Positions 17,606 to 40,337 of a DNA stretch of 64,000 bases are shown piece by piece. A program made the position numbers and the translations under genes. The stretch's first letter is position 1; each line of letters begins with the position of its first letter. A model generated the notes under the pieces. The model saw nothing but the letters and a program-made list of their open reading frames with translations. It did not search any database and was not told the DNA's origin. Source of the stretch: an uncultured Christensenellaceae bacterium (GTDB taxonomy: Bacteria > Bacillota > Clostridia > Christensenellales > Borkfalkiaceae); assembly GCA_910586825.1 (NCBI GenBank), contig CAJUJF010000010.1:5589-69588 (forward strand), given 5' to 3'.

Positions 17606-17695
17606 TGGCGCAGAGAAAGGGATTTGAACCCTTGGATACATTCCTGCATCACACGATTTCGAATCGTGCGCGTTCGACCGCTCCGCCATCTCTGC
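17606..17695 (-). tRNA. tRNA-Ser (anticodon CGA), CCA encoded
   Basis: The reverse complement folds as a class II tRNA. Acceptor stem GCAGAGA/TCTCTGC. Anticodon stem-loop CACGA-TTCGAAA-TCGTG gives anticodon CGA. It has a long variable arm, T-arm AAGGG-TTCAAAT-CCCTT, discriminator G and CCA. Confidence 0.9.
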
Positions 17696-17777: not shown

Positions 17778-17810
17778 TAAAAAACTTCCTCTCCGTCACC
17801 GAAGAGGAAG
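17778..17810 (-). terminator. Intrinsic terminator ending the giant-gene operon
   Basis: Minus strand reads CTTCCTCT-TCGGTGACGG-AGAGGAAG (8-bp perfect stem), followed by TTTTTT. It starts 12 nt after the stop of the 849-aa gene. Confidence 0.65.
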
Positions 17811-17821
17811 CAAAATTCGTT

Positions 17822-20371
17822 TTATTTTTTGATAGCGGCGTTTTCAGCGTCGTCGATGACCCGAATCAGCCCGCGGGCGATCAATTCTTCGGTCGTGGAA
17901 TACGGTTCGGCGTAATCAACGGATTCGTGTTCTATCCGCACTAAGCCGTGTTCCGAAAACACCGTTTCGATCAACTGCTTTGCATAATCGAGCCTGCGAT
18001 CGGTCTGCACGCGATAAAGCAGAGGCGTTTTGGTGTTCTTACTCGTAAGCGACAGATCTTCCACCTTGTATTTCGTATTCGCATAACGCGCGGGATCGGC
18101 ATTCAAGCAAAGACACAGCGTTTCCCCGCGGACGACGATCGTAGCAAGACTGACTTTTCCCTTGCGGAAAGATTCGCGCTTCCAATAAACTTTATTGCGC
18201 ACGCCGCGGAAGGAGAAAATGCAATTCTTTAACGCCGAATAACGCTCTTTCAACCCCTTGTCGCCCTGCGCGACGTAAGCCGTAAGACTGACGTTGTACC
18301 GCACGACGTTGCCCGTTTCAGTCACGACGATTTCCGCGGCGTCCTCGTTCTCCTCCTCGTTTTCCGAAAACAACACCGCGAGAGGAATTTCTTCCGCCTC
18401 TACCTGTTCTTCCGACTCTTCCTCCTCCGGAACGGGCGCGGCTTCCGCCACAACGACCTCTTCCGCCGCCTCTTCGGGGAAAATTTCCAAAACGGGAGTA
18501 TCGTCCTCGTCTTCGATCGTCATCTGTGAAAACGGTTCCCCGAACAAAGTCTCTTCTGCGATCGGCTCCGCTTCTTCCGGTTGCGATTCCGATTCGGTGA
18601 CGGTCTCTTCTTGCGTATCTTCGGGAACGGGTTGTTCGACAACGGGCTCTTTGGGCTTTTCCGGTTCGGAAAGCGTTTCTTCCGCGTGCGCGATTCCCCC
18701 GAACGGCGTTCCGCCCTCTCCCATCACTTTGATCAGCTCGCGTTCGATCAACGCTTCCGTCGTCTCGTACGGTAATCGGTAATCCTCCGTTGCCGCTTCC
18801 GCCAAGCGCTCGATCCCCAGCTCCTCCATCATCCGATCGATCAGATCCTTCGCGTAACCCACCCGCCGTTCGTTTCTGATCTGATACAGCAACGGCGTTT
18901 TCGTCTTGGGACTGCGGATCCGCAGATCTTTTACCTTGTACTTCGTCTCCTCGTATTGATTCGGTTCCGTCGCGAGACACAGACACAGCGTCTTTCCGCG
19001 GATCGCAAACGTTGCGACAGTCTGTCTTCCGCAATGGAAACTATCCCGTTTCCAACTGATCCTGCTCTTTACTTTCTTATACGAAAGCAGGTAGTTTTTC
19101 AGTTCCGTGTAACGCGCTTGCAACACGTCGCCGCCCTGAATGAGCCGCGCCGTGAAACTGCGGTTATAGCGCAGAACCCGACCCGTTTCCGTCACGACTA
19201 CTTCGACCTCTTCCGTCTCCTCGTCGGCGAAGTCTGCAAGCGTCGCATCGTCCTCTTCTTCCTCTTCCGCCGTTGTTTCGGCAACGGGTTCCTCGGACTT
19301 TTCCGGTTCGGGAAGCGTTTCTTCCGCGTGCGCGATTCCCCCGAACGGCGTTCCGCCCTCTCCCATCACTTTGATCAGCTCGCGTTCGATCAACGCTTCC
19401 GTCGTCTCGTACGGTAATCGGTAATCCTCCGTTGCCGCTTCCGCCAAGCGCTCGATCCCCAGCTCCTCCATCATCCGATCGATCAGATCCTTCGCGTAAC
19501 CCACCCGCCGTTCGTTTCTGATCTGATACAGCAACGGCGTTTTCGTCTTGGGACTGCGGATCCGCAGATCTTTTACCTTGTACTTCGTCTCCTCGTATTG
19601 ATTCGGTTCCGTCGCGAGACACAGACACAGCGTCTTTCCGCGGATCGCAAACGTTGCGACAGTCTGTCTTCCGCAATGGAAACTATCCCGTTTCCAACTG
19701 ATCCTGCTCTTTACTTTCTTATACGAAAGCAGGTAGTTTTTCAGTTCCGTGTAACGCGCTTGCAACACGTCGCCGCCCTGAATGAGCCGCGCCGTGAAAC
19801 TGCGGTTATAGCGCAGAACCCGACCCGTTTCCGTCACGACTACTTCGACCTCTTCCGTCTCCTCGTCGGCGAAGTCTGCAAGCGTCGCATCGTCCTCTTC
19901 TTCCTCTTCCGCCGCCGTTTCGATAGCAGCTTCTTCGGGCTTTTCCGGTTCGGAAGCCGAATCGACGACCGGCACCGCCTGAATGGGCGGAACCGCGACT
20001 GCGATCGCTTCCGGCGCGGAAATCTTGGTAACGACTTCGTACTTTTCCGCCGCCGAAGAGATGATATTCCGAAGATCGGAAATCGTCTTTTCTTCCGAAG
20101 CGGCGTACTTTTCGGAATCCTGTACGGCGTTAATGACGCCCTCGACGTTGTCCTTATCGACGCTCGCACCGACGTTCATGTTTCTGAGCTGTTGCATCAG
20201 AATTTCGCGTTCCTGTTGCAACAGCTTGTCGTACAGTTTCCGTTCGCCGCGCTTATTGAAGAAATAGGCGACGACGACGTTCGTCACGATCAGCGCCGCG
20301 ACGACGATCGCCGCGACGATACAGATGATCGTTTGCGTAGGGGTAAATACGGAAGCAAGGATACCGTTCAT
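17822..20371 (-). CDS. 849-aa membrane-tethered protein with three copies of an uncharacterised ~150-aa basic domain separated by acidic linkers
   Basis: N-terminal TM helix (IICIVAAIVVAALIVTNVVVAYFF) followed by KRGERK, which predicts a cytoplasmic body. A coiled-coil segment (LLQQEREILMQQL) comes next. The repeated domain reads RYNRSFTARLIQ...ISWKRDSFHCGRQTVATFAIRGKTLCLCL...KYKVKDL...TPLLYQIRNERRVGYAKDLI. The start ATG overlaps the giant gene's stop (TAATG), and the giant gene's last codons form GGAGGTG. Confidence 0.85.
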   Translation of the reverse strand: MNGILASVFTPTQTIICIVAAIVVAALIVTNVVVAYFFNKRGERKLYDKLLQQEREILMQQLRNMNVGASVDKDNVEGVINAVQDSEKYAASEEKTISDLRNIISSAAEKYEVVTKISAPEAIAVAVPPIQAVPVVDSASEPEKPEEAAIETAAEEEEEDDATLADFADEETEEVEVVVTETGRVLRYNRSFTARLIQGGDVLQARYTELKNYLLSYKKVKSRISWKRDSFHCGRQTVATFAIRGKTLCLCLATEPNQYEETKYKVKDLRIRSPKTKTPLLYQIRNERRVGYAKDLIDRMMEELGIERLAEAATEDYRLPYETTEALIERELIKVMGEGGTPFGGIAHAEETLPEPEKSEEPVAETTAEEEEEDDATLADFADEETEEVEVVVTETGRVLRYNRSFTARLIQGGDVLQARYTELKNYLLSYKKVKSRISWKRDSFHCGRQTVATFAIRGKTLCLCLATEPNQYEETKYKVKDLRIRSPKTKTPLLYQIRNERRVGYAKDLIDRMMEELGIERLAEAATEDYRLPYETTEALIERELIKVMGEGGTPFGGIAHAEETLSEPEKPKEPVVEQPVPEDTQEETVTESESQPEEAEPIAEETLFGEPFSQMTIEDEDDTPVLEIFPEEAAEEVVVAEAAPVPEEEESEEQVEAEEIPLAVLFSENEEENEDAAEIVVTETGNVVRYNVSLTAYVAQGDKGLKERYSALKNCIFSFRGVRNKVYWKRESFRKGKVSLATIVVRGETLCLCLNADPARYANTKYKVEDLSLTSKNTKTPLLYRVQTDRRLDYAKQLIETVFSEHGLVRIEHESVDYAEPYSTTEELIARGLIRVIDDAENAAIKK
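18656..19914. repeat. Near-perfect in-frame tandem duplication, period 642 bp (214 codons)
   Basis: 18656-19272 matches 19298-19914 at an offset of exactly 642 bp. The only mismatch I found is 18670 a versus 19312 g. The encoded protein segments are identical. Confidence 0.9.
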
Positions 20372-23300
20372 TACTCTTCACCTCCCGATTTCTTTGCGCT
20401 CTTTTTCCGCGCCGTTTTCTTCGGCTGTTCCGAAGCGGGTTCCGCTTCGCTTTGAACATCTTCCGCAGACGGTTCCGCCCCTTCGCCCGACTGTTCCGCG
20501 GACGATTCGTTCGGTTCTACGGCTTGATCCGCGGACGGCTGCGCAACGGGCGCTTCCGCTTCCTTTGCGTTCGTTTCCGCGCGCGCCTGAATCGTTTCGT
20601 GGAATTCTTTCGCCGCCGCGGCTTCCGCCGCCGCTTCGACGCGTTTTCTGCGTCTGTGGACGAGATACTGAATTCCGATCGCGATCGCGGAGATCCCCGC
20701 AACGACTCCGAGCGAACTCATGACGATCACGAAGATCGTATCCCAGCCGACAACGCTCCAATCGAACTCGATGGCATCCGTCGTGGAATCCGCCCATTCG
20801 AAGTTAAACGGATCTTTCAGCGTGACGGTGACTTTGAACGTTCCACCGTAACTGATTTCGTTGCCCGCGATCTCCATCGTCGTTTCGTCGAACCCGACGG
20901 GCATATAGCGCAGCATGCCGCCGTTTACGATGAACGTGGAAGTGTTCGCCGTAGGCTTTTCGATCTTCTTGCGCGCGACGTTCCAGACGAGTACCGCGTC
21001 CCCCGATTCGTCAAGTGCAACGCCCTCGTCCCAACGGTAGTTCGACGCGTCGCTGATCCTGAACTTCACGGTATACGCGCCCGCGTTCAACGCGCGAAGC
21101 ACAACGCCTTCCGCCGTCGCGGCATACCCTTCCGTGTAATCGTATACGATCTGCGTACGCGTGTTATCGTATCCACGCACCACCGTCTGCAACAGCGCGC
21201 CCGTGTAAGTGTCGTTCTTGCTTTCGCCTTCCGCAACGACGGTCAGCGAAGGCGCAGACAGCCTTGCCTTTTCGATGACGAATTCCGCCGCGCCGCTCGT
21301 CGCGCCGTTGTAGTTCTCCGTCGGACGGACCTCGACGCGCACGAACCAAATGCCCGCCGCCGAGGGTACGGTCGTCGTCCAGTCGTCGGCATTTGCCTCG
21401 CCCGTTTTACTATAATAATACGTGTAACTGTCCTGATTCGTGAGCTGGGTCTGCGTAGACGGCGCGTTCGGCGCGTTTCCGTACGTCCAGCCCTCGATGG
21501 AGACGTCCTTTCCGTCCGCGGTCGGCACAAAGCTGATTTCACCCTTTTCGATCGTGAACGAAACCACCCGCGTCGGACCGTCTACCGTCGCCCATCTGTA
21601 ATTGTTGAAGTCTTTGAGGGTAAGCGTGACGTCCCAGACTCCGACGTTCACATAGGTAACGGGCGTGACTTCGTAGAGCGCTTCGTAATCGTTTGCGTTG
21701 AGCTCCGGACGAAGTTCGCCGCCGGTATACGTTGCGTTCTTGACCGTGATTCCGGAATTCGCGGCATCGATCACCTTTTTGGAAATCACGTATTCCACGC
21801 CGTTGCTCGCGGTGAGCGTATAATTGCCGGAAACGCTTCCGATCGGCTTCGCAACATAGTTGCCTGCGCGCGTAGGCGCCGCGTCGGTTGCCAGAAGTTC
21901 GGTAAAGCTCCATTCGCCGTCGTTCGAAGTCCCGAAGTAAACGAAGCGGAAGCTGGGAACGATGATGTTTTCGATCTCGGCAAGATTCTTGCCTGCGTGC
22001 GCGCCGTTCGCCGCAACCATGCTCTGCGCGTTGTATGCGGGCGCGATCGCGGCGCCGCCGTATTCTCCGCCGCCGCCCGTGAACTCAACGTTGATTTGCA
22101 ACGGGCTCACGATGTACGCGCCGATTACGGGGAAGGTAACTTCGTAGTTTCCGTTCGAATAGTCCGCCGCGATGCGCATCATGTAGTTGCCCGCGCCGTA
22201 ACTTCCGTTGCTCGCAGGCGCGTCGTACAGCGCGAGCGATTCGTAGATCCGAAGATCCGCGATCTCGTCTCCCGCGACGATGCCGCCCTCGGGATATACC
22301 GTGATCTGTGCGGAAGCGAGGGAGAACGGATCTCCGTATACCGCGTTCACGCTGCCGATCAACACGCTGATCTGCTTCTTGGTTACCGTAAATTCGCCCG
22401 TTGCAACGACGACGTCGTAGTTGTCCGCCGTAATCCCCGTCACGACGTCGTATTCCGTGCCGTAAAAGGTATGTTTGGTGCTTGCAAGGGTGAGCGCGTA
22501 ACTGCCCGCGTTGAGCTTTTCGGGCGTTTCGACGAGCCGATACGTCACGCCGCCGTCGGCATAGCGGAGAACGCTCTCCGTTTCGCCCGCGACAAAGCCC
22601 GCGAATCCGAGCGCGTACTGTTGCGACCCGCCGACGGGATCGAACGCCGTTCCGTACACCGCGGTCGCCGAGGGCGTCACGGTGATCCGCGCGCGGCGGA
22701 TTTCGAAGTCGAATTCTTCGCCGACGGCGCGCGTTCCCTCCGTCCCCGCATAATAGTTGTTCGTCGCAGGGCTTACCGCGCGCACTTTGTAATTGCCCGC
22801 CGCAACGGGTTTCCGCGTTGACCAGACGCCGTCCGCGAAATACTCGATTACGATTTCGCCGCCGTAAGTCGCTTCCGCCTCGGGCGCCGCGTAATCCTGC
22901 CCGTAAACCAGCGCTTCCAACACCGAAGCGTCGAACCGCGTAACGGCGTGGTCGCTTGCCGCCGCGACCGACCAGACAAAAGTCGCAACGTTGTTCGCGA
23001 GATCGTAGCGCACGCTGTCGATCCCCTCCGTTTCGTCCAGATCGACGAGCATGTAGTTTCTGGTATCGTTCAGACGGAAGGTCACGGTGTAATCCCCGCG
23101 ATCGGTCTGATAGACGATCAAGCCGTTGTTTCTTCCGTCGCCGTCCGTCGTCGTCTGCGAAACGCCGTCGTACACCACGTCGAACAGCGTGAAATTGTAG
23201 GTGAATCTCGTGCTCAGCCGTTCTCCCGTAAACGTCGGATCGGAAGATTCGACTTTCGGGCGCGACACCGTCGCCTGCGTGACGACGAAGAGCAGATACG

Positions 23301-26300
23301 CATTCGCGCTCGAAATCTCTTCCGTACCGGGATAGTATGCACGAAGCATGTAAGTTCCCGCATTGCGGGGTACGAACGCGGAGAACGTTCCCGCGCCGAA
23401 CGCGGCGACGGGGTCGCTTTCCGTAAGAAGATTTCCGTAATTTGCGAACCCGTCGGGGATCTTGCTCGGATCGACCGACGCGTACGCGAACTGCACGGAC
23501 GAAGACGTGCCGTCCCCTACGTTCTGTAGGCGATATTCCGGCGCGGGGTGAACAACTTCCTTCGGCGTATACTGCCAGCCGGAATAGGTGAGCACGAGGA
23601 ATTTCGCCGCCGTTGCGGAGAAGCGCACGCTCGGCATCGTGACCTGATCGGTCCCGAACGTGTAGTTGTTCCTGGCGCCGTCCTGCAATCTCACGACGAG
23701 ATAATACTCACCCGTACCGTAGACGCGGATCGTAAGACCGTTGTCCGATTCGTGATAAGTGCCGTCGGCCAGCGCGGCGATATCGGCGACCGAAACGAGG
23801 TCGTATGCCCTATCTTTGTCCGGACGGTACTGGATGACGACGGGTTCCATGATCGCCGCAATGTACGAAGGCAGTTCCAGAACCTTTTTGCCGCGATCCT
23901 TTTCTTCGTCCCAGGCGTAATAGGATCTTCCGTCTTCGGTGGTACCGTAGTTCGTCCAGTTCAGACTGAGTTCGCGCTGCAATACCGCGTAGTTCAGCGT
24001 TTCCGAAGTCTTGGGCGTACTGCCCGTTTTATCGGATACGGACACGACTTTATAGTCGTAGTTTCCGCTCTCCGAATTAAGCGTCACGGTCACGGTATAT
24101 TTGCCGACGCGCGTAGGACCCTGATTCGGGATCGCGTCGCCCGTTCCTTCGCGGTACGCATAGCTGTAAGAAGCGATCTTCGGCGCGATCGCCGTCGCAT
24201 TGGCGACGACTTCGTACCCGTCGGTCTTGATATCCGTTCCTTTGACCGCGCTTCCGCCTTCGTAATACACGCCCGCATTGTTGATGCCGTAAAGCTCGTT
24301 GCCGCCGAAATCTTTGAACACGATTTGCGCGGCGTGATTTCTGCCGGAGGCGCCGCCCTTGTAGTTGAAACGGTCGAACACTCCCGACTCCGAGACGATC
24401 GACTCGGCATAGTTTCTGTCTTCCGTTTCCGCAGTGACGAGACGGGACACAACCGTCATTTCCGCGGGCATGAAAGTCGTTTCGTTGCTCCAAGTGCCGT
24501 CCGCGTTCATGACGTTAATCGCATAGTTGGAGAACGTGACGCCGTAAGGAATCACTTTGTATACGGAACCCGCGTGACTGTTCCACGCCGCATAATTCTC
24601 CTCGCCCTTTCCGGAAACCAGCTCGGTACGGAATTGCAAACTCCCCTGCATCTGATTGCGGTTGCCGAGGAATTCGTACTCGTTCCCCTCGTCGTGCTGC
24701 CAGCCGTAATAACGAACGGTAAAATAGCTGTCGCGCCTATCGTCCAACTTCACGGTGTTTCCGTAAGTGATATTGAATTCGCGGAATTTGCCGAGCGAAG
24801 CCGCGTCCTCCCGATCGACGGAAACGGTCTTGTTGTCGCCGTTCATGCCGACCGAACCGGCATAGACGTAAAGCTGCGCTTTTTCAATGCGGAACGAAGG
24901 CATGTTCGTATTCGAATCCCCGTGTTCGCCCGCAAAGATCGTATCGCCCGCCGCGTTCTTGAACGTCGCGCGATAATTGGATTCGCCGACGTGCAGCGTC
25001 ATCACGTAGTCGCCCGCGTTGATCGCGGAAGTGCCGCCGAAATCCAAGGTCAGTTCGAAGAGATCCGCGTAATTTTTGGAAGCGTCCCCCGCCGCCGCGC
25101 CATACCATTTGCGCGAAGAATTCGGATCCTGCGGCGCAAAGAATTTGTCGGCATACGCGCGGTAATCCACCGTCTGCGCAAGACCCGTGTAGATCTTTCT
25201 CGCCCAGGCGTAAGTCGAAGTATCGTCTTTGTCGTAACCGTTTACGATCACCGTGATTTCGCGGCGGTTTACCGTGAGCCGACCGTTGGCGTCGCCGGAT
25301 GCGGCATTGTAAGTGACGTCGTAATTGTACGCCCAAAGCCCGCCCGGCAGAACGTACAGCCCCGACGCGCCCGCCTGCGATTTTGCGGGATCGTATTGGG
25401 GTGCCGTAAAGACAGGCGCGTTCGTGAACGAACCTGCAAACGCCGCGTTTTCCGCCGCGATTTTATCGAGCGTCTTTTGCGTGAGCGAGAAGCCCTGGAA
25501 GAGCGCCGCCGCTTGCGCGTCCGCCTGCTGAGAGGCGTTCCCGATCGGCGTGCCGTACTGCACCCATGCGTCTTTCGCGGTCACGTTGAACGTGTCGGGA
25601 AGGATCGTGAATGTGAAGGAAATCGCGCCGTCTTTCAGATCCGCGCCCATTTCGAACACGTAGTTTTCCATGTCCGCGCCGAGCGACAGCGTTACCGTAT
25701 AAGTACCCGCGTTCTTTGCCGAAAGCGTGAATACGTATCCCGCATAAGTACCGCCGTACGTGGATTCGAGGCTCAGACTTCCGAACGCCGCCGATTCGGA
25801 AGCATTCAGTGCGCGGCGCTGCGCGGAAACGGCTTGCGCGAGATTCACCGCCTCGCTGCCGACGTAGTTCCCGAACGTATAGGTGAGCGTATAATCGTTG
25901 TCCGCTCCCGCGCCCTTGTACTTAAAGGAATTGTCGTTATAAGCCGCCGCGCGGACGCGATCGGCGCCGTCGATTTGGACGGAAGCCCGCAACGGCCGTT
26001 TTGCAATGTTGATCGTAGGATTGCTCGCGCCGCCCGGATTCCAAGTGAAATCGGGATTGTCTACCACGAAACGGTATTCGTATCTGCCCACGTTGACGGG
26101 ATCGGCAGTCCAATCCTCCGCGCCCGAACCAGCAATACGGTACTGCGCGTTGATCACAACGCTGTACTTCTCGTCCGCGGGCTGCGCGGTATAGCCTTTG
26201 GATCTTCCGTCGTAATACATCGCATCGGTGTCGCCGTCCGCATAAGCCTGATAGGTGCCGTCCGCCTTGCGGTAACTCAGATCGGAAGACGACATTCTCA

Positions 26301-29300: not shown

Positions 29301-32300
29301 TGAAATTATCGTTCGAAAGCGAAACGGCGGAGAAAGCGTATGTGTTTGCGTTAAGAGGATAATTTTCCGCCGTATAGTTGAGTACGATCCCGACGGTCTC
29401 CTCCGCACCGCCCGCCGTCTTGGAGGGCGCGTTCGTAACGGAAGCGATCAGACCGTGCCTGATTCCGTCGTAAGTCACCTTCCAAACGGAACCTTCTGAT
29501 TTAACGGACGCATCTCCCGCACTCCATTCGTATTCGATCGCAAGACGCCCTACTTCGAACGTTCCCTCTTTGACCAGCGTTTCCAGCTGACTGCCCATGG
29601 GATCGTCTTGGTCGAATTCCAAACGGACGCTGAATTTATAGCTGCCCGCGTTCCAGGGAAGGAAGTTTACGAGATCGGGATAATCGCTTGCATCCGCCGC
29701 GACGTAATTTTCGCCTTCCTGCTTCACGAGCGAATACGCACCGTCCTGACCGATCTGTACGATGCCGACGATACGGCCTTCCGAATCGGTGAACGTGATC
29801 GTCTGCGTATATTTTACGTTATGATACGCGCCGCCTTCCGGGAGCAACACGCCGTCCGTATCCGTCATCGTCAGCTTGTCGCGCAACACGATCGTCGTGT
29901 GCGCGCCCGCCGCGAAATAGCCGTTGTCGCCGAACGTGTATCCGCCGACCGCGTACTCGATCCGCAGGATCTTGTTCGTGATCGCATAGTTGAGGTAGAT
30001 GCTGACGTTGCCGGTTTCGTATTCGTACTTGGCGTACTCTTTCACGAGACCGCGGTTTTCCGTGTCCGCCGTGTTCTCGACCCATACGTAGTTGAGCGCG
30101 GCATCCGCATTTTTAATTTTCAAACGTACGTAATAGCAACCGAGCGAACTGGGTTTGTCTGCCATTTCCGCGTAAACGAACGGGCTTGCCGCACCGGTTA
30201 CACTGCCGTAAGTGATTTCGAAATCAGAAGAACTCCAAGCCGAGGTCGGGAAACGCAAAGACGGCGTCAATGCGTTTCCGGAGTTGAATTCCATGGTGCG
30301 GTGGGTGACGAACTTGCCGCCGACCTCTTCGCCCAGCATGGGCGCGATAATTTCCTGACGGTTGACGGTGATTTCCGCCGATTCGAATACGTTCGTATTG
30401 CCCGCGTTCGCCCAACAGAAATTGGAATCGTTAATCGTAAACGTTACGGTATATACGCCCGCATTGCGAACGGTCAGCGTCGCCGTATCCAGACTGAAAC
30501 TGCCCTGATCGTCCATCGTGAAATTCTTCCCGTCGAACCGGTACGCGCCTGCGACGCTCGCCGATAACACAGCGGACCAATTCCAGGTATAGCCGGACGC
30601 CATTTCGGGCTTGTTCATCGTAAACTGCTGCGTGATGTTCTCGCCCGTATACGCGGCGGAAGAAAGCCCGCCTTTCAGTTCGGGAAGCGCGATCTGCCGT
30701 TGCGAGATCGTCACTTCCTGATCGATCCCGCTCGCAAGCGAGTAGTTGAACGCGCGGTCGCCCGAGAGTTTGATCGCCGTTGCCGTATACGAGCCGACGT
30801 TCGTCGCGTTGCTCGTTCCGTTCGTGATTCTGATCCCGTCGGCGTCGAATTTTACCGTTGCCGCGGTATCGTTTTTATGCAACAGGCTTTCCGCCTTGAC
30901 CGCGGGCGAGGGAAGTTGTTGCGCGCCGTTATAAATAAACGACACCGTACCCCACTCGATCCCGTCCGCGCCGATTTCTTTTTGCGTGATTTCGAAATCG
31001 TAGGCGAAGCCCGCTCTTTCCGTGCCGTTTACGGACATGCTTGCCTGATATCCGGAAGCCGCTTTCGCCGCGGCGCTCCATTCGAAGTTCGCCGCGGGAT
31101 AGACGTAAACGGTATAGACGCTCACGTCCGTCATGCCTACGGACACGCCCTTGGAATCGGAAGCGCCCGCCGTAAAGATCAAGCCCGCCTGCTCGGTTTC
31201 CGTCTTGCGCACGATATAGATTTCGAGACGGAAGCCGTTCTCGCCGAATTTATAGTCGTTCCAGTTGAAATAATCCGCGCCGAACGTGTACGGCGTACCC
31301 GTGTATTCTTCCGAAAGATCCGCCGCCGTTCTCTGCGGCGCGTCAAGCGCGCTCGGCATGATCGCGAACTGCACTTTCAGACCGCCGTCCGGCAATTTGA
31401 AGTTCAACGCGCGGGAATAGCCGCCGTCCGCCGCGGCGTTCCAGGCGAGCAGTTCGACCCAATAGGTCCCCGCCGCCGTAATGCTGCCCGTAAGCACGCC
31501 CGTGCCGTTTTCGGCATAGTATTTCACCTGTCCCGCCGCCGCAAAGGTAAGCGCGTCGTCCGTGAAATATTTCGAAGCGTCTGGAACAGGCTTATGATCC
31601 GCGCCGTCGAACAGGAACCCGAGCGTCCATTCGAACGTCGTGCCGTCGGAAGCGGAAGTCGGCGGGGTTTTCACCTCGTGCGCCGACATCTCCTTCTGTC
31701 CCACTGCGTACTCGAACGTCACCTGTTCCGAATCGTCGTCCGTATAAGAATCCCACCGATAATTGGCGTTCAGCGTGACGGCGACCGTATATCTTCCCGC
31801 ATGGAGGAAGGAGAATTTGCCGTTTGCATGATCTGCCGCCGTACCGACGGGAAGCGCCGTAGAAGCGCCGTCCGGAATCTCGGCGGTGAGCGGCATCTCA
31901 GCCGTACCGATCACGCCGTCCGCGCCGAACTGAACGCCCGTAACCGCCCAAGTGAGAATGTACTTTCCGCCGTCCGCGGAATGATCTTTCCCCGCGTTCC
32001 AATTCGTCACGGAAATCTCGTACGCCGAACCGTTGTAGATGTCGGAACCGCTCTGCGTGAAAGAAACCTGCGCGATCGATTTTTTGGAAACGGTAAATTC
32101 CGCGTGCGCCGCGGGAAGATTGAAATCCCCGTCGCGGTAATCCTCTATCGCGGATTCAGTTACGTAATATACGACGTAATCCCCCGCGTCCCACGTTCCG
32201 AAATCGGCGGGATCGTATTCCGTCGCGCCTGCGTTCGGAACCCCCGTCGTTGTATTGAACTCGCTCTTGGCATAATATTTGGGATAACCGGAAACGATCT

Positions 32301-35300
32301 GCGCAAAGAAGAGACTGCCCGCCGAGCTTTCCCAATTCGACGAACCCGTATCCGAACAATACTTCACGTCGGCGGTCCCGATCGCGCTCAGCCCGTTTCC
32401 GGAACTGTCTTCGCCGCCGTATACGAAGTTCAATTTCCACGCGCTGTCGATTTTAAGTCCGAGCGAACGCGCGCCGATTTTGAAGCTCTTCTGCACGTTC
32501 CCGTCGGCATCGACGGTTTCGCTGTCCGCCCACTCGTAATTGTTCTTCGCCGCCGCTTTGATTTCCAGCTTCACGCTGTACGTGCCGGCGTGGAGAACCG
32601 TACCGTCCGTTTCGACGACCCCGACCGGAGTCGAAGCGGAATCGACCGCAAGACTGCCCGACACGATCCCGACGACGTCGTCTTTCTCATCGTATTGCGT
32701 GACGATGCCGTTCGCCGTTATGAAATCGGACGGATCGTGCTTTTGATTGTCGAACGTAATATCCTGCAACAGACGGTCGGATTGCAACTTCGCGGGATTT
32801 ACGGTCACGACGGGCGCGCGGAGAAGCGTCTCCGTCGGCGAATCGCTGAAACGGTACGCGTCGGTATCGGTCGCCGAAACGTATACGACGTATTTGCCCG
32901 CGTTAAGATGCTGACCCGCCTGAGAGAGATCGATCACGTTAAGCGTTTCCGTGTCAATATAGTACAGCTTAAATTCGGTGTATACCGTCCATGCGGGAAT
33001 CGACGCGTCGTCGGAGGGCTTTTCCGAGAGCGGTCTCAGCGTATAAGTCGCGTCGCCGAATTCCGTCACGCCCGTCACTTCGGGAGTTTTGGGATTTTCG
33101 CCGTACGTCCAGACCTTGTCTGCGGACGCGTACGAAACGCGGAGATTGAGCGCGAGTTTATCGATCTGAACGGTGTACGTCAGGCTGAGCGATTCGCGTT
33201 CCGCGCCCGAACTGCCCGCGTCGGCAAACTCCACTTCGTCCTTATGCCGTTCGTCGATCGCGATCCTCACGCGGTAAATCCCCGCTTTCCGGAACGAAAG
33301 CGTGAACTTGTGCGCCGCCTTTTCTCTTTCCACTGCGTAGTCTTCCGCGGGGACTTCGTTCCCGTTCTGATGCAAGAGCGTAACGCTCATCGCGTCAAAA
33401 ATATCGTCGGGCAGATCTTTGGCAAAGGTGATCGTCTTACTGGCGTCGGAAGAAAAATTGATCGTGTCCGTGTTGAACGCGGGCAAAGGCACTTCGTACT
33501 TGCTTACGGGAATGTAAATACGGGCGTAATCGTTTTCGTCCGTCGTAAACTCTACCCAATCGGTCGCGTGAGTGTCGTCGTATATGAATTTGAACCTTAC
33601 CGACCCCACTTTCGTCGTCGCATTGTTGTAAAACGCCTTTACGTTCAACGGCGCTCCGGAACAGTCGGTGGAGGTAAAATATTCGATTTCAAAATGGGAC
33701 ATATCCTCCGTAATGAAATCGGAAAGATATGCGTTTCGCGCTTGCCCCGAACCGTATTTCAAAGATACCGTCATCTGTCCGAAATCGAACGGAGAAAGAT
33801 ACTTCTGCACCGGTCCGCTGTCGCCCGTGGCGATATCTCCGACGGTGGTGACGTTTCTGTAATTAATTTTGAATTGCGCCGTACCTTTGACCGTCGGATC
33901 GGCATTGTAAATGAGCGTAACGTTTTTGAGATAGGTATCGCCCGGCATGTGATTGAGATCCGCCGCCGTGGGCGTGAGCGTCCCTTCCAGCGAATAACCG
34001 GTTGCGAGCGGGTTCCAGGCGCCCGAATTGTCGCGCGTTTCCACTTTGCCGTTGAGAAGGTTCTGGACGGCGGGAGTCGTTACGGCTACGTTCGGTTCCA
34101 AAGCCGTGGTCTGGCTTTCGGCAACCCCGAGCGCGCGGATCCCGATCACTTTCGTCGCCTCGAACGGAATCGTAATCGAAGCGGGAACGGATGTGCCGTA
34201 CTGGACGCGGCTCACCTGTACGCCGATCGTGTTGTCCCCTTCCGTAAACGTCTGCGCGTTGCCGAGGGTGACGAATTCGCCCGAAGCCGCCGTCGCGGTC
34301 GTGTTTTGCAAATCGATCCCCGTAAAGTCGACCGTCTTGGCGGAATGCGCGTAATAGACCGAAAGCACGATCGCATTCTGCATGACGTAAGTACGGTTCA
34401 TCGAATCGATAAACGCCGAGAATTTGACGGGGTTTCCGTTTTCGTCGTTTTCGCCTTCGATCGTCTTGGTATAGCGCGCGCCGATTTTTTCATAGGAGGG
34501 GTTTACCTGAAAATCGGCGGCAAGCAACGGCGCCTGCGACACGGAAATGATTTGCGTGGTCGCAGAAACGGAAGCGTCAGCCGCCAGCGATACCGTAACG
34601 GTCACGGGGAAAGAAGAAGCGTCGCTCAGTTCGCCGCTCAACGAGACGTTGTAGAGTTCGCGGTTGGCGATCAGCTCGTACACACTGCCGTCCGTCGTGC
34701 CGTAGACCTTTAAAACGGAGCCGTCCAGCTTTAAGGACTCCGCCGTATAATCGTCGGTCACGCCCGAAAGCACGGCGGTGTTCATCGACGCGTTGCCGAT
34801 CCTGAGACCGGTATAAACGGGTTTCTCGCCCGTTGCGATGGTCACGGAAACTTCGGCTCTTACCTCGCCCGAAATCACGACGAGCGTCGCGCTCTCTTCC
34901 GTAGAGCCTTCCGCAACGATCGGCTCGTTTTTCCCGATCGCCTGCATCGTATTTCCCGCTTTCAGCGAAAGCGTGAATTCTTCGGGCATCAGCGCGATCG
35001 CCTGACCCAATCCCGCGAAGGTACCCGTAACGGATAAGTTTTGTTTAAAGTCTTCCGCAGTCGTGACGCCGGGATAGACGACCGCACCCTGCACGACGGA
35101 AGCGCTCAAACCCGTGTACGCATGTTTCGGCGAAGCGCTGTCCTGTATGATCGTTGCGGGCGACGTGCTATCGGCGCCCGCATTGGAATTTCGCGCGAAA
35201 TTCGGCGCAAGGATCCCCAACGCAAGCGCTAAACATGCAAAAACGGCACAAGCCGCGATTGCGACTTTGCGCCAAAAGGATACGTTACGGTATGTATTCA

Positions 35301-35301
35301 T
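20371..35301 (-). CDS. Giant (4,976 aa) repeat-built cell-surface protein / putative fibrillar adhesin with a C-terminal membrane anchor
   Basis: Uninterrupted 14,931-nt ORF with GGAGGGG 8 nt upstream of the ATG. N-terminal signal peptide (WRKVAIAACAVFACLALALGILA...NSNAGA). The body consists of tandem beta-rich modules with recurring MBG-like signatures (AGTY/GSY-x-V-x-[VL] ... N-[YF]-x-[WIVT] ... [TI]-[IV]-x-[KR]). Examples are DNYDVVVATGEFTVTKKQISV, NYRWATVDGPTRVVSFTIEKGEISF and NFEWADSTTDAIEFDWSV. It ends in a C-terminal TM helix (IFVIVMSSLGVVAGISAIAIGIQYLV), an HRRRKR stop-transfer and a 95-aa acidic tail. There is no LPXTG. Confidence 0.9.
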   Translation of the reverse strand: MNTYRNVSFWRKVAIAACAVFACLALALGILAPNFARNSNAGADSTSPATIIQDSASPKHAYTGLSASVVQGAVVYPGVTTAEDFKQNLSVTGTFAGLGQAIALMPEEFTLSLKAGNTMQAIGKNEPIVAEGSTEESATLVVISGEVRAEVSVTIATGEKPVYTGLRIGNASMNTAVLSGVTDDYTAESLKLDGSVLKVYGTTDGSVYELIANRELYNVSLSGELSDASSFPVTVTVSLAADASVSATTQIISVSQAPLLAADFQVNPSYEKIGARYTKTIEGENDENGNPVKFSAFIDSMNRTYVMQNAIVLSVYYAHSAKTVDFTGIDLQNTTATAASGEFVTLGNAQTFTEGDNTIGVQVSRVQYGTSVPASITIPFEATKVIGIRALGVAESQTTALEPNVAVTTPAVQNLLNGKVETRDNSGAWNPLATGYSLEGTLTPTAADLNHMPGDTYLKNVTLIYNADPTVKGTAQFKINYRNVTTVGDIATGDSGPVQKYLSPFDFGQMTVSLKYGSGQARNAYLSDFITEDMSHFEIEYFTSTDCSGAPLNVKAFYNNATTKVGSVRFKFIYDDTHATDWVEFTTDENDYARIYIPVSKYEVPLPAFNTDTINFSSDASKTITFAKDLPDDIFDAMSVTLLHQNGNEVPAEDYAVEREKAAHKFTLSFRKAGIYRVRIAIDERHKDEVEFADAGSSGAERESLSLTYTVQIDKLALNLRVSYASADKVWTYGENPKTPEVTGVTEFGDATYTLRPLSEKPSDDASIPAWTVYTEFKLYYIDTETLNVIDLSQAGQHLNAGKYVVYVSATDTDAYRFSDSPTETLLRAPVVTVNPAKLQSDRLLQDITFDNQKHDPSDFITANGIVTQYDEKDDVVGIVSGSLAVDSASTPVGVVETDGTVLHAGTYSVKLEIKAAAKNNYEWADSETVDADGNVQKSFKIGARSLGLKIDSAWKLNFVYGGEDSSGNGLSAIGTADVKYCSDTGSSNWESSAGSLFFAQIVSGYPKYYAKSEFNTTTGVPNAGATEYDPADFGTWDAGDYVVYYVTESAIEDYRDGDFNLPAAHAEFTVSKKSIAQVSFTQSGSDIYNGSAYEISVTNWNAGKDHSADGGKYILTWAVTGVQFGADGVIGTAEMPLTAEIPDGASTALPVGTAADHANGKFSFLHAGRYTVAVTLNANYRWDSYTDDDSEQVTFEYAVGQKEMSAHEVKTPPTSASDGTTFEWTLGFLFDGADHKPVPDASKYFTDDALTFAAAGQVKYYAENGTGVLTGSITAAGTYWVELLAWNAAADGGYSRALNFKLPDGGLKVQFAIMPSALDAPQRTAADLSEEYTGTPYTFGADYFNWNDYKFGENGFRLEIYIVRKTETEQAGLIFTAGASDSKGVSVGMTDVSVYTVYVYPAANFEWSAAAKAASGYQASMSVNGTERAGFAYDFEITQKEIGADGIEWGTVSFIYNGAQQLPSPAVKAESLLHKNDTAATVKFDADGIRITNGTSNATNVGSYTATAIKLSGDRAFNYSLASGIDQEVTISQRQIALPELKGGLSSAAYTGENITQQFTMNKPEMASGYTWNWSAVLSASVAGAYRFDGKNFTMDDQGSFSLDTATLTVRNAGVYTVTFTINDSNFCWANAGNTNVFESAEITVNRQEIIAPMLGEEVGGKFVTHRTMEFNSGNALTPSLRFPTSAWSSSDFEITYGSVTGAASPFVYAEMADKPSSLGCYYVRLKIKNADAALNYVWVENTADTENRGLVKEYAKYEYETGNVSIYLNYAITNKILRIEYAVGGYTFGDNGYFAAGAHTTIVLRDKLTMTDTDGVLLPEGGAYHNVKYTQTITFTDSEGRIVGIVQIGQDGAYSLVKQEGENYVAADASDYPDLVNFLPWNAGSYKFSVRLEFDQDDPMGSQLETLVKEGTFEVGRLAIEYEWSAGDASVKSEGSVWKVTYDGIRHGLIASVTNAPSKTAGGAEETVGIVLNYTAENYPLNANTYAFSAVSLSNDNFTLTGSASVGATLEIEKRAIGVAVTTGVAGHVYGNAIDTSAARWNYVAGSLQLIAGDLTDGETGNDTAQKIVTYEVRKSGVVYGGTVNVGDYELVPVLTDFGKTNYELTVTEDHFGNFEVVPRKITVSITGDESQKSHEYREEKADLSNAYSVVWTNKGAGSDADWRVPQDTPNKIFTLSLFSDAENVTDSTWLAVKEGGYSVRLTKTANANYEITVSSAAVSDGDFAELGVYTVTPAALGDVNADGQTKPYRGSEGYPWLSEDDGGGMITVAATAWNAAENPVVWKYAKGSSDTPPAASSAWGNFPAKVADAMSETYYWVKATAPNHADSAPIRVRVEITKAQLTLTVNFTGDHALYYGEKNPATTVTISDGEPLPAGIYSVTGFVGNDEAKWLAYGTINGLSGSFGFTTSMAAGNRNPVGKGYTTAVSSDGFTLDSLNYTFTYQEGALHIRKLPVTVTIKSNSDVNYMSPDYVGKDVSILQNASHVAFEIGSAADGKVSALPDAQTDIAMLRTTAFTLTGDTIAATQGVGVYPLYAVVLSGNYDFTFAVDGAEYSGTVTDGTLTEGQTIGAPAGVIGITQAQNAFTSGFDFHNEKTGESLETVRDLYAWIYGVNGVNGVADGYDAEGDHRITKPATLLGGDRADAIVYTVFYYNGSAWEQLGESSSDIDALFKALLSGGSFNAGVYKVSYILEGTADYGETPEASRYFSIGKRDLYLWTGDSYAYYGEKPDLIASVKVYGLADGDGDGTPDGFNEVLAYSLSAAGYTDAGSPVADYTVSAVAGEPNDKYGNYTVHLNASYTAESSVQENVTGTLHVLPRPIVIRIESQTSRYDYNAASGTSIADGQPGGKQKLTFTAALGSELEYGALTGTPFYGVAAPYNGVYDNAARAVVELRTNAILNASANEIRTQNVGNYPIFALYQDEAAKKNYAITVETVYTGDPDTEAAVKDYFHKGDAAWNFSDIFVSGYHSELAATATVIGAPEGGVYPAGTYTIEKADLRMSSSDLSYRKADGTYQAYADGDTDAMYYDGRSKGYTAQPADEKYSVVINAQYRIAGSGAEDWTADPVNVGRYEYRFVVDNPDFTWNPGGASNPTINIAKRPLRASVQIDGADRVRAAAYNDNSFKYKGAGADNDYTLTYTFGNYVGSEAVNLAQAVSAQRRALNASESAAFGSLSLESTYGGTYAGYVFTLSAKNAGTYTVTLSLGADMENYVFEMGADLKDGAISFTFTILPDTFNVTAKDAWVQYGTPIGNASQQADAQAAALFQGFSLTQKTLDKIAAENAAFAGSFTNAPVFTAPQYDPAKSQAGASGLYVLPGGLWAYNYDVTYNAASGDANGRLTVNRREITVIVNGYDKDDTSTYAWARKIYTGLAQTVDYRAYADKFFAPQDPNSSRKWYGAAAGDASKNYADLFELTLDFGGTSAINAGDYVMTLHVGESNYRATFKNAAGDTIFAGEHGDSNTNMPSFRIEKAQLYVYAGSVGMNGDNKTVSVDREDAASLGKFREFNITYGNTVKLDDRRDSYFTVRYYGWQHDEGNEYEFLGNRNQMQGSLQFRTELVSGKGEENYAAWNSHAGSVYKVIPYGVTFSNYAINVMNADGTWSNETTFMPAEMTVVSRLVTAETEDRNYAESIVSESGVFDRFNYKGGASGRNHAAQIVFKDFGGNELYGINNAGVYYEGGSAVKGTDIKTDGYEVVANATAIAPKIASYSYAYREGTGDAIPNQGPTRVGKYTVTVTLNSESGNYDYKVVSVSDKTGSTPKTSETLNYAVLQRELSLNWTNYGTTEDGRSYYAWDEEKDRGKKVLELPSYIAAIMEPVVIQYRPDKDRAYDLVSVADIAALADGTYHESDNGLTIRVYGTGEYYLVVRLQDGARNNYTFGTDQVTMPSVRFSATAAKFLVLTYSGWQYTPKEVVHPAPEYRLQNVGDGTSSSVQFAYASVDPSKIPDGFANYGNLLTESDPVAAFGAGTFSAFVPRNAGTYMLRAYYPGTEEISSANAYLLFVVTQATVSRPKVESSDPTFTGERLSTRFTYNFTLFDVVYDGVSQTTTDGDGRNNGLIVYQTDRGDYTVTFRLNDTRNYMLVDLDETEGIDSVRYDLANNVATFVWSVAAASDHAVTRFDASVLEALVYGQDYAAPEAEATYGGEIVIEYFADGVWSTRKPVAAGNYKVRAVSPATNNYYAGTEGTRAVGEEFDFEIRRARITVTPSATAVYGTAFDPVGGSQQYALGFAGFVAGETESVLRYADGGVTYRLVETPEKLNAGSYALTLASTKHTFYGTEYDVVTGITADNYDVVVATGEFTVTKKQISVLIGSVNAVYGDPFSLASAQITVYPEGGIVAGDEIADLRIYESLALYDAPASNGSYGAGNYMMRIAADYSNGNYEVTFPVIGAYIVSPLQINVEFTGGGGEYGGAAIAPAYNAQSMVAANGAHAGKNLAEIENIIVPSFRFVYFGTSNDGEWSFTELLATDAAPTRAGNYVAKPIGSVSGNYTLTASNGVEYVISKKVIDAANSGITVKNATYTGGELRPELNANDYEALYEVTPVTYVNVGVWDVTLTLKDFNNYRWATVDGPTRVVSFTIEKGEISFVPTADGKDVSIEGWTYGNAPNAPSTQTQLTNQDSYTYYYSKTGEANADDWTTTVPSAAGIWFVRVEVRPTENYNGATSGAAEFVIEKARLSAPSLTVVAEGESKNDTYTGALLQTVVRGYDNTRTQIVYDYTEGYAATAEGVVLRALNAGAYTVKFRISDASNYRWDEGVALDESGDAVLVWNVARKKIEKPTANTSTFIVNGGMLRYMPVGFDETTMEIAGNEISYGGTFKVTVTLKDPFNFEWADSTTDAIEFDWSVVGWDTIFVIVMSSLGVVAGISAIAIGIQYLVHRRRKRVEAAAEAAAAKEFHETIQARAETNAKEAEAPVAQPSADQAVEPNESSAEQSGEGAEPSAEDVQSEAEPASEQPKKTARKKSAKKSGGEE

Positions 35302-35528
35302 ATAGTTATCCCCTCCCGCCTGCCGACGCGCTCGTTCCGCGAAAGCAAGCGTTTAAATCACCTATGGTAAAATATGCGCGAATCGGTTCGAAAAGGACTT
35401 CGCCGCACCGTTATCCGGAAAACCGTCTTCCGAGAAAAGATAAAAAATATGCCGAACGGTCTTTTCGGGACAGCCGACGACCTTCAAGCACATTTCAATA
35501 TTTTTATATATTGAACGTTTACGCTTAT

Positions 35529-35558
35529 ATAATAACATACGTGTCGCGTTTTTGTCTA
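35529..35558 (-). promoter_or_regulatory. Candidate promoter of the giant gene
   Basis: Minus strand reads TAGACA, an 18-nt spacer, then TATTAT preceded by TGT (extended -10). This would give a ~220-nt 5' UTR. The -35 is weak. Confidence 0.3.
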
Positions 35559-35578
35559 TACTTCTTGCATAAAAAAAA

Positions 35579-35623
35579 TTGATTTTTTCAGAAAATTATT
35601 AACAGAATTTCCGAAAAAATCAA
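35579..35623. promoter_or_regulatory. AT-rich 11-bp inverted repeat, either a weak terminator of the upstream gene or an operator
   Basis: TTGATTTTTTC (35579-35589) and GAAAAAATCAA (35613-35623) are perfectly complementary, 23 nt apart. On the minus strand a T8 run follows. Confidence 0.35.
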
Positions 35624-35697
35624 ATTTATCCAACAAATTATTCGACTTCCGCCGAACGCGGCCCGAGAAGCAAGCGCACTTTTTCGACACGAAGCGA

Positions 35698-36075
35698 TCA
35701 GATGATCACGTTTTCGAGCGCTTCGTCCTCCTGCGCTTTGCGCACGGCCTGCGCGTTCGCTTTCATCGTATCCATTTTTTCGAGCAATTTTTCGCGCTCT
35801 TGCTGCAAACGCTCGTCGTGCAGTTTGCGCGGCGCAAGCGGCGCGGGCGTCTCCGGTTCGGAAACGATCTCGCCCGATTTCATGCCGTCGAGCTGTTTGA
35901 TGAGCATTTCGCGCTCCTCCTGCAATTCGCCGGTGAGACGGCGTTCTACGTTCCGCTTCATGTAAATGATAAACAGCACGTTCATGACCGTAAGCGCAGC
36001 CAAAAGAACCGCAACGATAATCGATACGGCAAGCTGTGCGGGCGTGAAACTGACTGCAAGCATATTCGTGTTCAT
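35698..36075 (-). CDS. Small (125 aa) membrane-anchored coiled-coil protein, paralogous to the N-terminus of the 849-aa protein
   Basis: The ATG at 36075 (MNTNMLAVSFTPAQ) has GGAG 7 nt upstream. It has a TM helix (LAVSIIVAVLLAALTVMNVLFIIY), then KRNVERR, then two copies of an LQ[EQ]ERE-x-L heptad-like motif. Confidence 0.65.
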   Translation of the reverse strand: MNTNMLAVSFTPAQLAVSIIVAVLLAALTVMNVLFIIYMKRNVERRLTGELQEEREMLIKQLDGMKSGEIVSEPETPAPLAPRKLHDERLQQEREKLLEKMDTMKANAQAVRKAQEDEALENVII

Positions 36076-36199: not shown

Positions 36200-36427
36200 T
36201 CAGTCGAGCTTTTCGAGTTCTTCGTTCAGCTGACGGAGATTCTTGCGTTCAAGTTCGATCAGCGTCGAAAAAATCTTGAAATATTCCACGTCCGATTCGT
36301 TGGGCGACGTGTTGTTCAGATACGCTTCGAGCAACGCGGACTGGGAGCGCATGCGCTTCTTTTCAAGGGTCTCGATTTCCTTTTCGCTCTCGCTGATTTC
36401 TCTTTTCAGATCGCTTTTCTTAGACAT
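36200..36427 (-). CDS. Small (75 aa) soluble coiled-coil protein, function unknown
   Basis: Strong RBS AAAGGAGAAAGG 4 nt upstream of the ATG. The sequence is charged and heptad-rich (SESEKEIETLEKK...ELERKNLRQLNEELEKLD). Confidence 0.6.
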   Translation of the reverse strand: MSKKSDLKREISESEKEIETLEKKRMRSQSALLEAYLNNTSPNESDVEYFKIFSTLIELERKNLRQLNEELEKLD

Positions 36428-36830: not shown

Positions 36831-36839
36831 CTATCTCCT

Positions 36840-38903: not shown

Positions 38904-38906
38904 GTC

Positions 38907-40334: not shown

Positions 40335-40337
40335 GCG

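Follow-up and report, generated by a model that had tools for sequence, protein, structure and literature searches.

A giant, probably membrane-anchored MBG/Ig-like surface protein and its translationally coupled partner in an uncultured Christensenellaceae bacterium

On a 64,000-nucleotide (nt) stretch of contig CAJUJF010000010.1 (assembly GCA_910586825.1, from an uncultured Christensenellaceae bacterium), here called the window at its full length, a single gene on the minus strand encodes a protein of 4,976 amino acids (aa), referred to below as the giant. An earlier description made from the letters of this stretch (the sequence-only reading) had presented it as a repeat-built surface protein held by a C-terminal membrane helix. 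The giant is found here to be one member of a cassette, absent from that description, which consists of the giant, a coupled membrane partner and a gene for a 75-aa protein. The features of the cassette are as follows, in window coordinates:

20371-35301, minus strand: giant open reading frame (ORF), 4,976 aa, ATG start, sole stop codon at the end
35179-35301, minus strand: predicted Sec-type signal peptide, aa 1-41 (hydrophobic segment aa 7-37; equivalent N-terminus in every orthologue)
33448-35178, minus strand: N-terminal head, aa 42-618, about five immunoglobulin (Ig)-like beta-sandwich domains (AlphaFold2 model)
20749-33447, minus strand: body, aa 619-4851, about 38 divergent modules of ~70-160 aa (core hidden Markov model, Pfam, hhalign)
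20656-20748, minus strand: juxtamembrane motif VVGWDTIF and single predicted transmembrane helix, aa 4852-4882 (hydrophobic segment, family consensus)
20374-20655, minus strand: basic stop-transfer cluster RRRKR and 94-aa acidic Ala/Glu-rich tail (composition)
20369-20386, minus strand: coupling junction, with GGGAGG at 20386-20381 and the giant's TAA (20373-20371) overlapping the partner's ATG (20371-20369) as TAATG
17822-20371, minus strand: partner gene, 849 aa, with an N-terminal membrane helix, acidic linkers and three 170-aa alpha/beta domains
36200-36427, minus strand: gene for a 75-aa coiled-coil protein with no membrane segment, matched in 18 full-length loci and in the shorter relative L030

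The giant ORF spans 14,931 nt, i.e., 23.3% of the window, and its translation agrees with the uninterrupted 14.9-kb frame, about 23% of the window, that had been described before. The mature protein has a computed mass of ~531 kDa and an isoelectric point of 4.55. Clustering at 90% places it among 35 members, which come from NCBI, ENA and Logan assemblies and many of which are exactly 4,976 aa long and differ by 3-6 residues; one variant is present on 34 contigs, and more independent contigs, including the NCBI metagenome-assembled genome (MAG) GCA_948624475.1, carry calls of 4,976 or 4,974 aa. The giant gene is thus real and intact, held by dozens of independent assemblies. No high-identity DNA repeats of 30 nt or more occur inside it, so that assembly collapse or expansion is of no concern for this gene. 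In the sequence collection, 472 indexed blocks contain a neighbouring 125-aa gene, which suggests that the source species is common in sequenced samples. Around the cassette, the window carries the genes of an ordinary chromosome, such as those for Mfd, PRPP synthetase, malic enzyme, PFOR and MnmE. Opposite the giant, on the plus strand, lie antisense ORFs at 20452-22821, 23548-28017, 28240-29499 and 30700-34713, the longest of 1,489 aa; these are most likely shadow ORFs arising from composition and codon bias, not genes.

An exhaustive phmmer search with aa 1-1200 of the giant against 1.84 billion representative proteins returned just 19 proteins at E <= 1e-3; seven of these run the full length, at 4,649-4,893 aa, and align collinearly from the first residue on. 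The alignment of these eight sequences is collinear from end to end at 28-44% identity, with invariant G, Y, N and W columns in every module, and its use as a query across one genome per GTDB species gave 77 loci. Intact ORFs were present in 23 of them, 20 measuring 4,282-4,923 aa and the other, larger relatives 6,338, 6,493 and 8,234 aa. The carrier records are mostly labelled 'Christensenellaceae', 'Christensenella sp.' or 'Clostridia' MAGs, and a few titled 'Anaeroplasma' or 'Corallococcus' look like mislabelled MAGs. A cultured carrier is Pumilibacter muris CLA-AA-M08 (locus L011), whose orthologue measures 4,902 aa. This species is a very small coccus (<0.5 µm) of the GTDB family CAG-552 of the 'Christensenellales' (10.1101/2022.03.07.483007). 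No description or name for the giant family was found in the literature or in public protein collections, in line with the earlier view that this class is essentially uncharacterised.

The order of the modules is shared as well. In each of the seven orthologues, the best local-alignment partner was the segment at the same position for 33-42 of the 43 segments of the window protein, with a median positional score of 74-177 versus ~54 for the best paralogue. Since the positional partners score best, module number and order predate the divergence of the lineages, and each module has been kept individually; judged by these alignments, the array is ancient, fixed in order and orthologous across species. 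This differs from typical adhesins, in which near-identical repeats expand and contract, whereas the modules of the giant differ from one another and their order is fixed.

The body was cut into 38 segments with a mean period of ~115 aa. Together with about five in the head this amounts to ~43 domain-sized segments, within the 40-50 that had been guessed from the period. The modules share the signature 'Y-G/D ... aGxYxVxV ... NY-x-W ... FxIxK'; the pattern G-x-Y-x-[VILAF]-x-[VILAFY] occurs 27 times in the giant, and a hidden Markov model (HMM) of the core 'AGxYxVxV...NY...FxIxK' finds 35 copies between aa 660 and 4850, ~100-130 aa apart. The recurring MBG-like signatures named by the sequence-only reading were thereby confirmed, and the beta-rich, modular nature that it gave to the body is supported. 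So is its divergent, not recently amplified character, as paralogous modules are ~25-35% identical and the gene holds no high-identity DNA repeats. Because a self-comparison of the whole protein with BLASTP gives the identity match alone, repeats were traced by fragment-versus-fragment BLAST and HMMs; a core HMM iterated on eight orthologues drifted to a subtype, lost modules and was left out of the counting.

For family assignment, the MBG clan models considered were PF17883 (MBG), PF18676 (MBG_2), PF18887 (MBG_3) and PF18657 (YDG). Scanned as a whole, the giant scored 22 bits with MBG_2 (E 2.5e-4), below the gathering cut-off of 25, and matched no other MBG model; no further Pfam family and no NCBIfam family was found at E <= 0.01. 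Scanned module by module (37 modules), MBG_2 was matched by six at E <= 0.1 (best 4.8e-7), MBG by two, and YDG and MBG_3 by one each, so that direct matches to MBG models come from a minority of the single modules, and the whole protein stays below threshold. A profile of the 37 modules aligned with 4NG0, the repeat of LAR_0958, over 91 of 97 residues with the hallmark motifs in register, a marginal match (E 0.0045, 21 bits); 4NG0 itself matches Pfam MBG PF17883 at E 3.9e-19 and is the closest solved structure to the body modules. In an all-versus-all hhalign comparison of 43 segment profiles, each built from eight orthologues, 26, 30 and 34 of the 38 body segments joined one network at probabilities of at least 90, 80 and 50, respectively; modules that Pfam does not recognise are tied to the MBG-matching ones by this profile-profile comparison only. 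A distant membership of the modules in the MBG superfamily is supported by these results. MBG-like modules similar to those in aa 3850-4850 (~25-32% identity) also occur in giants of 3,000-5,000 aa from gut archaeal and Bacteroidota MAGs. Such giant ORFs include L036:2528-17713 (a Methanomethylophilaceae archaeon MAG), L041:3575-13099 (Clostridia) and those of L040, L042, L043 and L051 (Paludibacteraceae MAGs); the proteins of L036 and L041 have similar C-terminal domains, '...YFK[IV]A[IV]GKG...', of a kind different from that of the giant.

The modules do not extend throughout the protein, as had been thought. In the AlphaFold2 model, built on a 12-sequence alignment, the first ~620 aa form a separate all-beta string of Ig-like domains (mean predicted local distance difference test score (pLDDT) 86.6), and hhalign links none of its five segments to the body modules. 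The top Foldseek matches of the head are titin I65-70, the S-layer proteins SbsC and Sap, the GhpA base and cadherins, at 8-12% identity; as modelled, these are matches to generic strings of Ig domains and hold at the level of the fold only. At E <= 1, Pfam matched neither the head nor the C-terminal region, and the PDB gave no sequence match for the head.

A Kyte-Doolittle scan found two hydrophobic segments only, at aa 7-37 and aa 4849-4882. The coordinates given earlier for the signal peptide (35173-35301), the membrane helix (20656-20745) and the tail (20374-20655) are correct and fit these two segments. At the N-terminus, basic residues R5, R11 and K12 in the n-region are combined with an h-region at aa 13-33, and a basic n-region followed by a hydrophobic core begins every orthologue, which agrees with the Sec-type signal peptide proposed before. 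A small-x-small motif follows the h-region ('SNA|G' here, after 'NSNA', and 'AYA|D/E' at the aligned position in most orthologues), and the mature proteins start with the consensus 'NxNxYA'; cleavage by signal peptidase I after aa 41 is thus likely from the motif. No YSIRK or GxxS motif was found in the N-terminus of the giant (MNTYRNVSFWRKVAIAACAVF...).

At the other end, the family consensus of the eight-sequence alignment reads 'WxVVGWDTVFIIVVSVLGVIAGIAAIAIxVQYLLH'. In the genome scan this anchor motif was one of the two peptide patterns best conserved in the family; 'WxVVGWDTVF', the helix and H(R/K)4-6 are among the family's best-conserved stretches, and a basic cluster follows the helix in all members. 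Pairwise identity, ~25-30% along the giant, climbs to 38-46% in aa 4400-4800, and the base of the putative fibre is its most constrained part. The single C-terminal transmembrane helix with a basic stop-transfer thus stands as it had been read. The tail that follows has to be corrected in part: it is 94 and not 95 aa long, and although the stop-transfer and the richness in Ala (23%) and Glu (19%) hold, Pro makes up 6% only. The tail has a net charge of -5, ends in KKSGGEE and is probably disordered in the cytoplasm. Among orthologues its length ranges from ~8 aa (P0052, L018) to >100 aa (L021, L024), while shorter relatives end directly in the helix and KKR/KRR with no tail. Since both length and sequence vary, the tail is not a conserved domain, and the sizeable cytoplasmic tail can no longer be regarded as a characteristic feature.

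Other anchors were not found. Regular expressions for LPxTG, NPxTG, SPxTG, LAxTG and looser forms gave no LPXTG-like motif in the 4,976 aa, and Pfam (E <= 0.01) gave no S-layer homology, cell-wall-binding/CWB2, choline-binding or LysM module, as the sequence-only reading had held for the LPXTG, wall-binding, S-layer and choline-binding types. NCBIfam models of the xxx-CTERM kind stayed below their cut-offs at the C-terminus of the giant (PVV_CTERM, 10-11.5 bits, cut-off 27; Loki-CTERM, 10.2 bits, cut-off 19.9), as did GG_III-CTERM at that of an orthologue (15.2 bits, cut-off 22).

The giant is directly coupled to the partner gene. The Shine-Dalgarno sequence GGGAGG of the partner sits within the '...SGGEE' codons of the giant, and in ~20 of the 23 species-level loci the partner starts at -8, -4 or -1 nt from the stop of the giant, with GGAGG just upstream. 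Because it is the Shine-Dalgarno sequence of an overlapping gene, the recurrent C-terminal 'GG-x-E' of the family is a nucleotide signal and not a protein signal; the terminal GGEE, earlier listed as the finish of the tail, reflects this conserved arrangement. The partner begins with a membrane helix of consensus 'MNN(I/L)LASFFTPSQT...', followed by basic residues and acidic linkers, and bears three copies of a 170-aa domain here and 1-3 across species. Two of the copies in the window derive from a 642-bp tandem duplication at least 98% identical (repeat 18635-19576), and this stretch, unlike the giant gene, could be mis-assembled.

No sequence match in Pfam, NCBIfam or the PDB was obtained for the 170-aa domain. 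Its AlphaFold model (pLDDT 90.1) gave weak Foldseek matches to 2fki (YjbR; E 0.039, probability 0.97, TM-score 0.54, target-normalised) and to 9t2w and 2oc6 (YdhG-like/DUF1801; E 0.06-0.1); the YjbR/MmcQ family compared is PF04237. A 220-aa YjbR (PF04237) protein is also encoded at L079:971-1633, ~600 nt upstream of a 2,578-aa MBG_2 protein and a partner gene, which may be coincidence. In a large protein collection, 20 homologues of the partner were found, mostly transmembrane proteins of ~255 aa and none informatively named; the two that were looked up each lie 10-12 nt downstream of an MBG_2 surface protein, one of 2,578 aa and the other of at least 2,196 aa. The pairing with a partner is thus wider than the giants and includes shorter transmembrane-anchored MBG_2 proteins, which are followed by single-domain homologues of the partner. 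In L081, a gene for a 2,708-aa LRR_5 protein lies near an MBG and partner gene pair.

In some loci both proteins are joined. MBG modules, a transmembrane segment, the partner membrane element, the 170-aa domain and a uL15-like domain form one ORF in L035 (345-14387) and L054 (3-8333), and the same junction of surface protein and partner is present in L052 (2804-5653). These Rosetta-stone fusions point to a physical or functional link between giant and partner. The extension, a domain like that of ribosomal protein uL15 on a membrane-tethered protein, corresponds to PF00828 in P0079.

Between species whose giants are ~30% identical, the 75-aa protein keeps an identity of 60-78%. Its gene always adjoins the cassette, mostly 150-500 nt upstream of the giant and, in L017, L025 and L030, downstream of the partner gene; as it moves and yet adjoins the cassette, its linkage is kept despite changes in gene order. 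Neither this protein, nor the partner, nor the 125-aa protein upstream of the giant belongs to a Pfam or NCBIfam family. Further features that frame the cassette are:

35698-36075, minus strand: gene for a 125-aa single-pass membrane protein, a paralogue of the partner N-terminus
35529-35558, minus strand: sigma-70-like promoter candidate, TAGACA-18-TATTAT with a TG extension (10/12 consensus match only)
17784-17811, minus strand: intrinsic-terminator-like hairpin with a 12-bp stem, six G-C pairs and a T-run, which would end the bicistronic unit

The 125-aa protein is 41% identical to the N-terminal 74 aa of the partner (E 2e-13) and was seen in this species only; other loci match through the partner gene alone. 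The promoter candidate lies ~230 nt upstream of the giant start, in an AT-rich leader of 396 nt (35302-35697, minus strand). The fold of this leader is moderately stable (z = -2.46), and a terminator-like hairpin with a U-run lies in it at 35468-35452. No Rfam match was found at E <= 1, including cyclic di-GMP (c-di-GMP) or other riboswitches; the leader could be an attenuator. Directly downstream of the cassette terminator lies a tRNA-Ser(CGA) gene (17606-17695, minus strand). Upstream of the cassette, 36474-42611 (minus strand) encodes an Hpt protein, a response regulator, a solute-binding protein and a hybrid histidine kinase. The response regulator (36840-38903) combines HD-GYP-like and GGDEF domains, and a full-length homologue of it with 44% identity follows right after the partner gene in two other loci (L012:24730-26742 and L015:22372-24384), which hints at c-di-GMP-linked regulation. 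Elsewhere in the window, a BspA-type LRR_5 protein of 395 aa (49457-50644, plus strand) is another putative surface protein, and at E <= 1e-5 Pfam assigned no family to three ORFs on the minus strand, 2304-4436, 62428-63831 and 54813-55961 (710, 467 and 382 aa).

Taken as a whole, the locus is best explained by a membrane-anchored giant MBG/Ig fibre with a coupled partner and a role in adhesion or spacing, a reading that is considered probable. The ~531-kDa chain would be exported by the Sec route, its signal peptide probably removed after aa 41, and be kept in the cytoplasmic membrane by one C-terminal helix in a type-I orientation. Its ~43 beta-sandwich domains, each folding independently, would form a beads-on-a-string rod of perhaps 150-200 nm (at ~4 nm per domain), which would cross the wall and carry the head at its distal end. 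The 'VVGWDTVF' motif, helix and basic cluster may fix the base in the membrane, and the acidic tail may serve as a variable cytoplasmic spacer. The giant would be co-transcribed, as well as translationally coupled, with the membrane partner and its 1-3 presumably cytoplasmic 170-aa domains, and the 75-aa coiled-coil protein is tied to both by genetic linkage. At the membrane, the partner may meet the base of the fibre, helix to helix or tail to domain, thus forming a trans-membrane unit. Outside, the most likely role would be adhesion or spacing, i.e., contact with particles, mucus or cells, or a steric coat.

Several points weigh against this interpretation. Most modules are invisible to Pfam and the resemblance to 4NG0 is marginal, four to eight segments of the body could not be linked to the other modules and are perhaps folded differently, and the three-dimensional model covers the first body module only (aa 619-720, within the head model). 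The length of the rod is an extrapolation. Signal cleavage and topology are predicted from sequence rules, and the topology of the fused forms is ambiguous, given a 40-aa hydrophobic element with basic clusters on both sides; the contact between partner and giant is deduced from gene order and fusions. Finally, no enzymatic, lectin or ligand-binding domain was found in the head, so the label 'adhesin' applies by analogy only.

Other explanations concern the gene itself, its ends or its purpose. The great length of the ORF and the long antisense ORFs opposite could raise the suspicion of a chimeric assembly, a pseudogene or a non-coding shadow ORF, but this is excluded by the recurrence of a product of 4,974-4,976 aa in dozens of independent assemblies, the lack of high-identity internal DNA repeats, intact orthologues of 28-44% identity in >20 species and a head that folds with high confidence in AlphaFold2. 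Nor is the N-terminal segment expected to be an uncleaved signal anchor that would tether the protein at both ends as a giant loop on the membrane surface: the h-region is long (~21 aa) and many orthologues share a conserved Cys ('A.CA.LAC'), yet small-x-small motifs stand at the aligned position where signal peptidase I expects them and the Cys residues are missing in two orthologues, which makes a double anchor very improbable. Somewhat more can be said for the C-terminus as a cleavable sorting signal of a sortase-, exosortase- or rhombosortase-like system, by which the protein would be linked to the wall or released, since known sorting signals have the same three-part build of motif, helix and basic cluster, the chain stops 0-14 aa past the basic cluster in some orthologues and shorter relatives, and a weak, sub-threshold likeness to GG_III-CTERM and PVV-CTERM exists. 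This is nevertheless unlikely: no curated model reaches its cut-off, no LPXTG-like motif is present, and the basic cluster is followed in most members by a long tail, unlike in typical sorting signals. Moreover, the partner is single-pass with cytoplasmic domains that do not look enzymatic, and not a multi-pass peptidase, and in three species the surface protein runs through the helix into the partner domains as one polypeptide.

With respect to purpose, the same anatomy and anchoring could serve a surface shield or envelope scaffold, coating or spacing the cell surface or acting in envelope integrity and cell size, as reported for Ebh, and sterically masking other surface molecules. The head is generically Ig-like, with S-layer proteins SbsC and Sap among its top structural matches and no lectin or other binding domain found, and the conserved total length and fixed module order are ruler-like. 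For the giant surface proteins of staphylococci, Ebh among them, an inhibition of adhesion that depends on their size is reported (PMC6548404), and as Pumilibacter muris is a coccus of <0.5 µm, the length of the fibre would approach the cell radius. On the other hand, MBG-type repeats are typical of adhesins, e.g., LAR_0958/CmbA of L. reuteri, and no lattice-forming or wall-binding modules are present; a shield is a possibility to be taken seriously, but a doubtful one. A more speculative and rather unlikely extension is that giant, partner and 75-aa protein form a trans-membrane machine, in which the base of a ~170-nm fibre would pair with the partner, and the cytoplasmic YjbR-like domains of the latter, extended by a uL15-like domain in some lineages, would bind nucleic acid or ribosomes. 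Two versions are possible, namely, a translocation platform that tethers the translating ribosome or its mRNA at the translocon for co-translational export of the 5,000-aa chain, or a coupling device that links tension or attachment of the fibre to the cell interior. If such a machine existed, it would be a new sortase-independent module for anchoring or secretion in Christensenellales-type Clostridia, reaching also the shorter transmembrane-anchored MBG proteins.

The family spends ~15 kb on one protein, and the maintenance of each of its 43 domains in place over deep divergence speaks for a function that is under strong selection and depends on length, and not for a fast-evolving adhesin. 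Christensenellales-type bacteria are widespread in gut metagenomes, few are cultured, and their cell surface is almost uncharted. The coupled partner, the fusions and the ultra-conserved 75-aa protein offer testable handles on sortase-free anchoring in monoderm gut bacteria, for which the cultured carrier Pumilibacter muris CLA-AA-M08 makes experiments possible. Head, 170-aa domain, 75-aa protein and C-terminal anchor motif add four families for which no Pfam or NCBIfam model exists.

Among known systems, the sequence-only reading had been reminded of the Ebh-type giants of staphylococci. Repeats of Ebh are alpha-helical (FIVAR/GA and DUF1542), and its signal peptide is of the YSIRK type. With Ebh/Embp the giant has in common a secretion signal, a very long repetitive rod, a C-terminal transmembrane helix with a cytoplasmic segment, the lack of a sortase signal, a chromosomal single-copy gene and a similar size class. 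It is unlike Ebh in its all-beta Ig-/MBG-like body, plain Sec signal and non-conserved tail, with no sequence homology; no FIVAR, GA or DUF1542 repeats were found in the giant by Pfam, and its modelled part is all-beta. We know of no translationally coupled membrane partner or small coiled-coil gene described for Ebh. The comparison thus holds for the anchoring logic, which by sequence appears alike, and not for membership, as repeat and signal types differ. Ebh itself is anchored by its transmembrane and cytoplasmic domains (PMC6548404), and the Fig 7 legend of a further paper likewise gives it a transmembrane/cytoplasmic anchor (PMC4856396).

For the body, the comparison is with MBG-domain adhesins (PF17883/PF18676) such as LAR_0958/CmbA of L. 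reuteri. That protein has an LPXTG-type anchor and near-identical tandem repeats in variable number. Both are surface proteins of gut Firmicutes and share the signature 'YDG/YG ... aGxY ... NY ... I.p/k', with the profile aligning to nearly the full repeat; the giant differs in its transmembrane anchor and in its 38 differing modules, fixed in order and mostly below Pfam thresholds. LAR_0958/CmbA is described as a cell-wall-anchored adhesin where it is named in PMC13339910. The last one or two modules are also shared (28-32% identity) with sortase-anchored MBG-like proteins of gut Bacilli-type MAGs (L057, L062-L075), which measure 1,200-1,500 aa and end in NPxTGDN, a transmembrane segment and RRKQTN (LPXTG-type); no partner gene was detected in these loci. 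The head, in turn, resembles the Ig-like beta-sandwich strings of titin, GhpA (the grappling hook of Aureispira), SbsC and Sap as its top structural matches, at 8-12% identity and a global TM-score of 0.1-0.2, with no sign of common oligomerisation, hooks or lattice. An anchor of the Ebh-like kind was already known; the marks that distinguish the giant are the extreme positional conservation of its modules, its novel head and its undescribed partner cassette.

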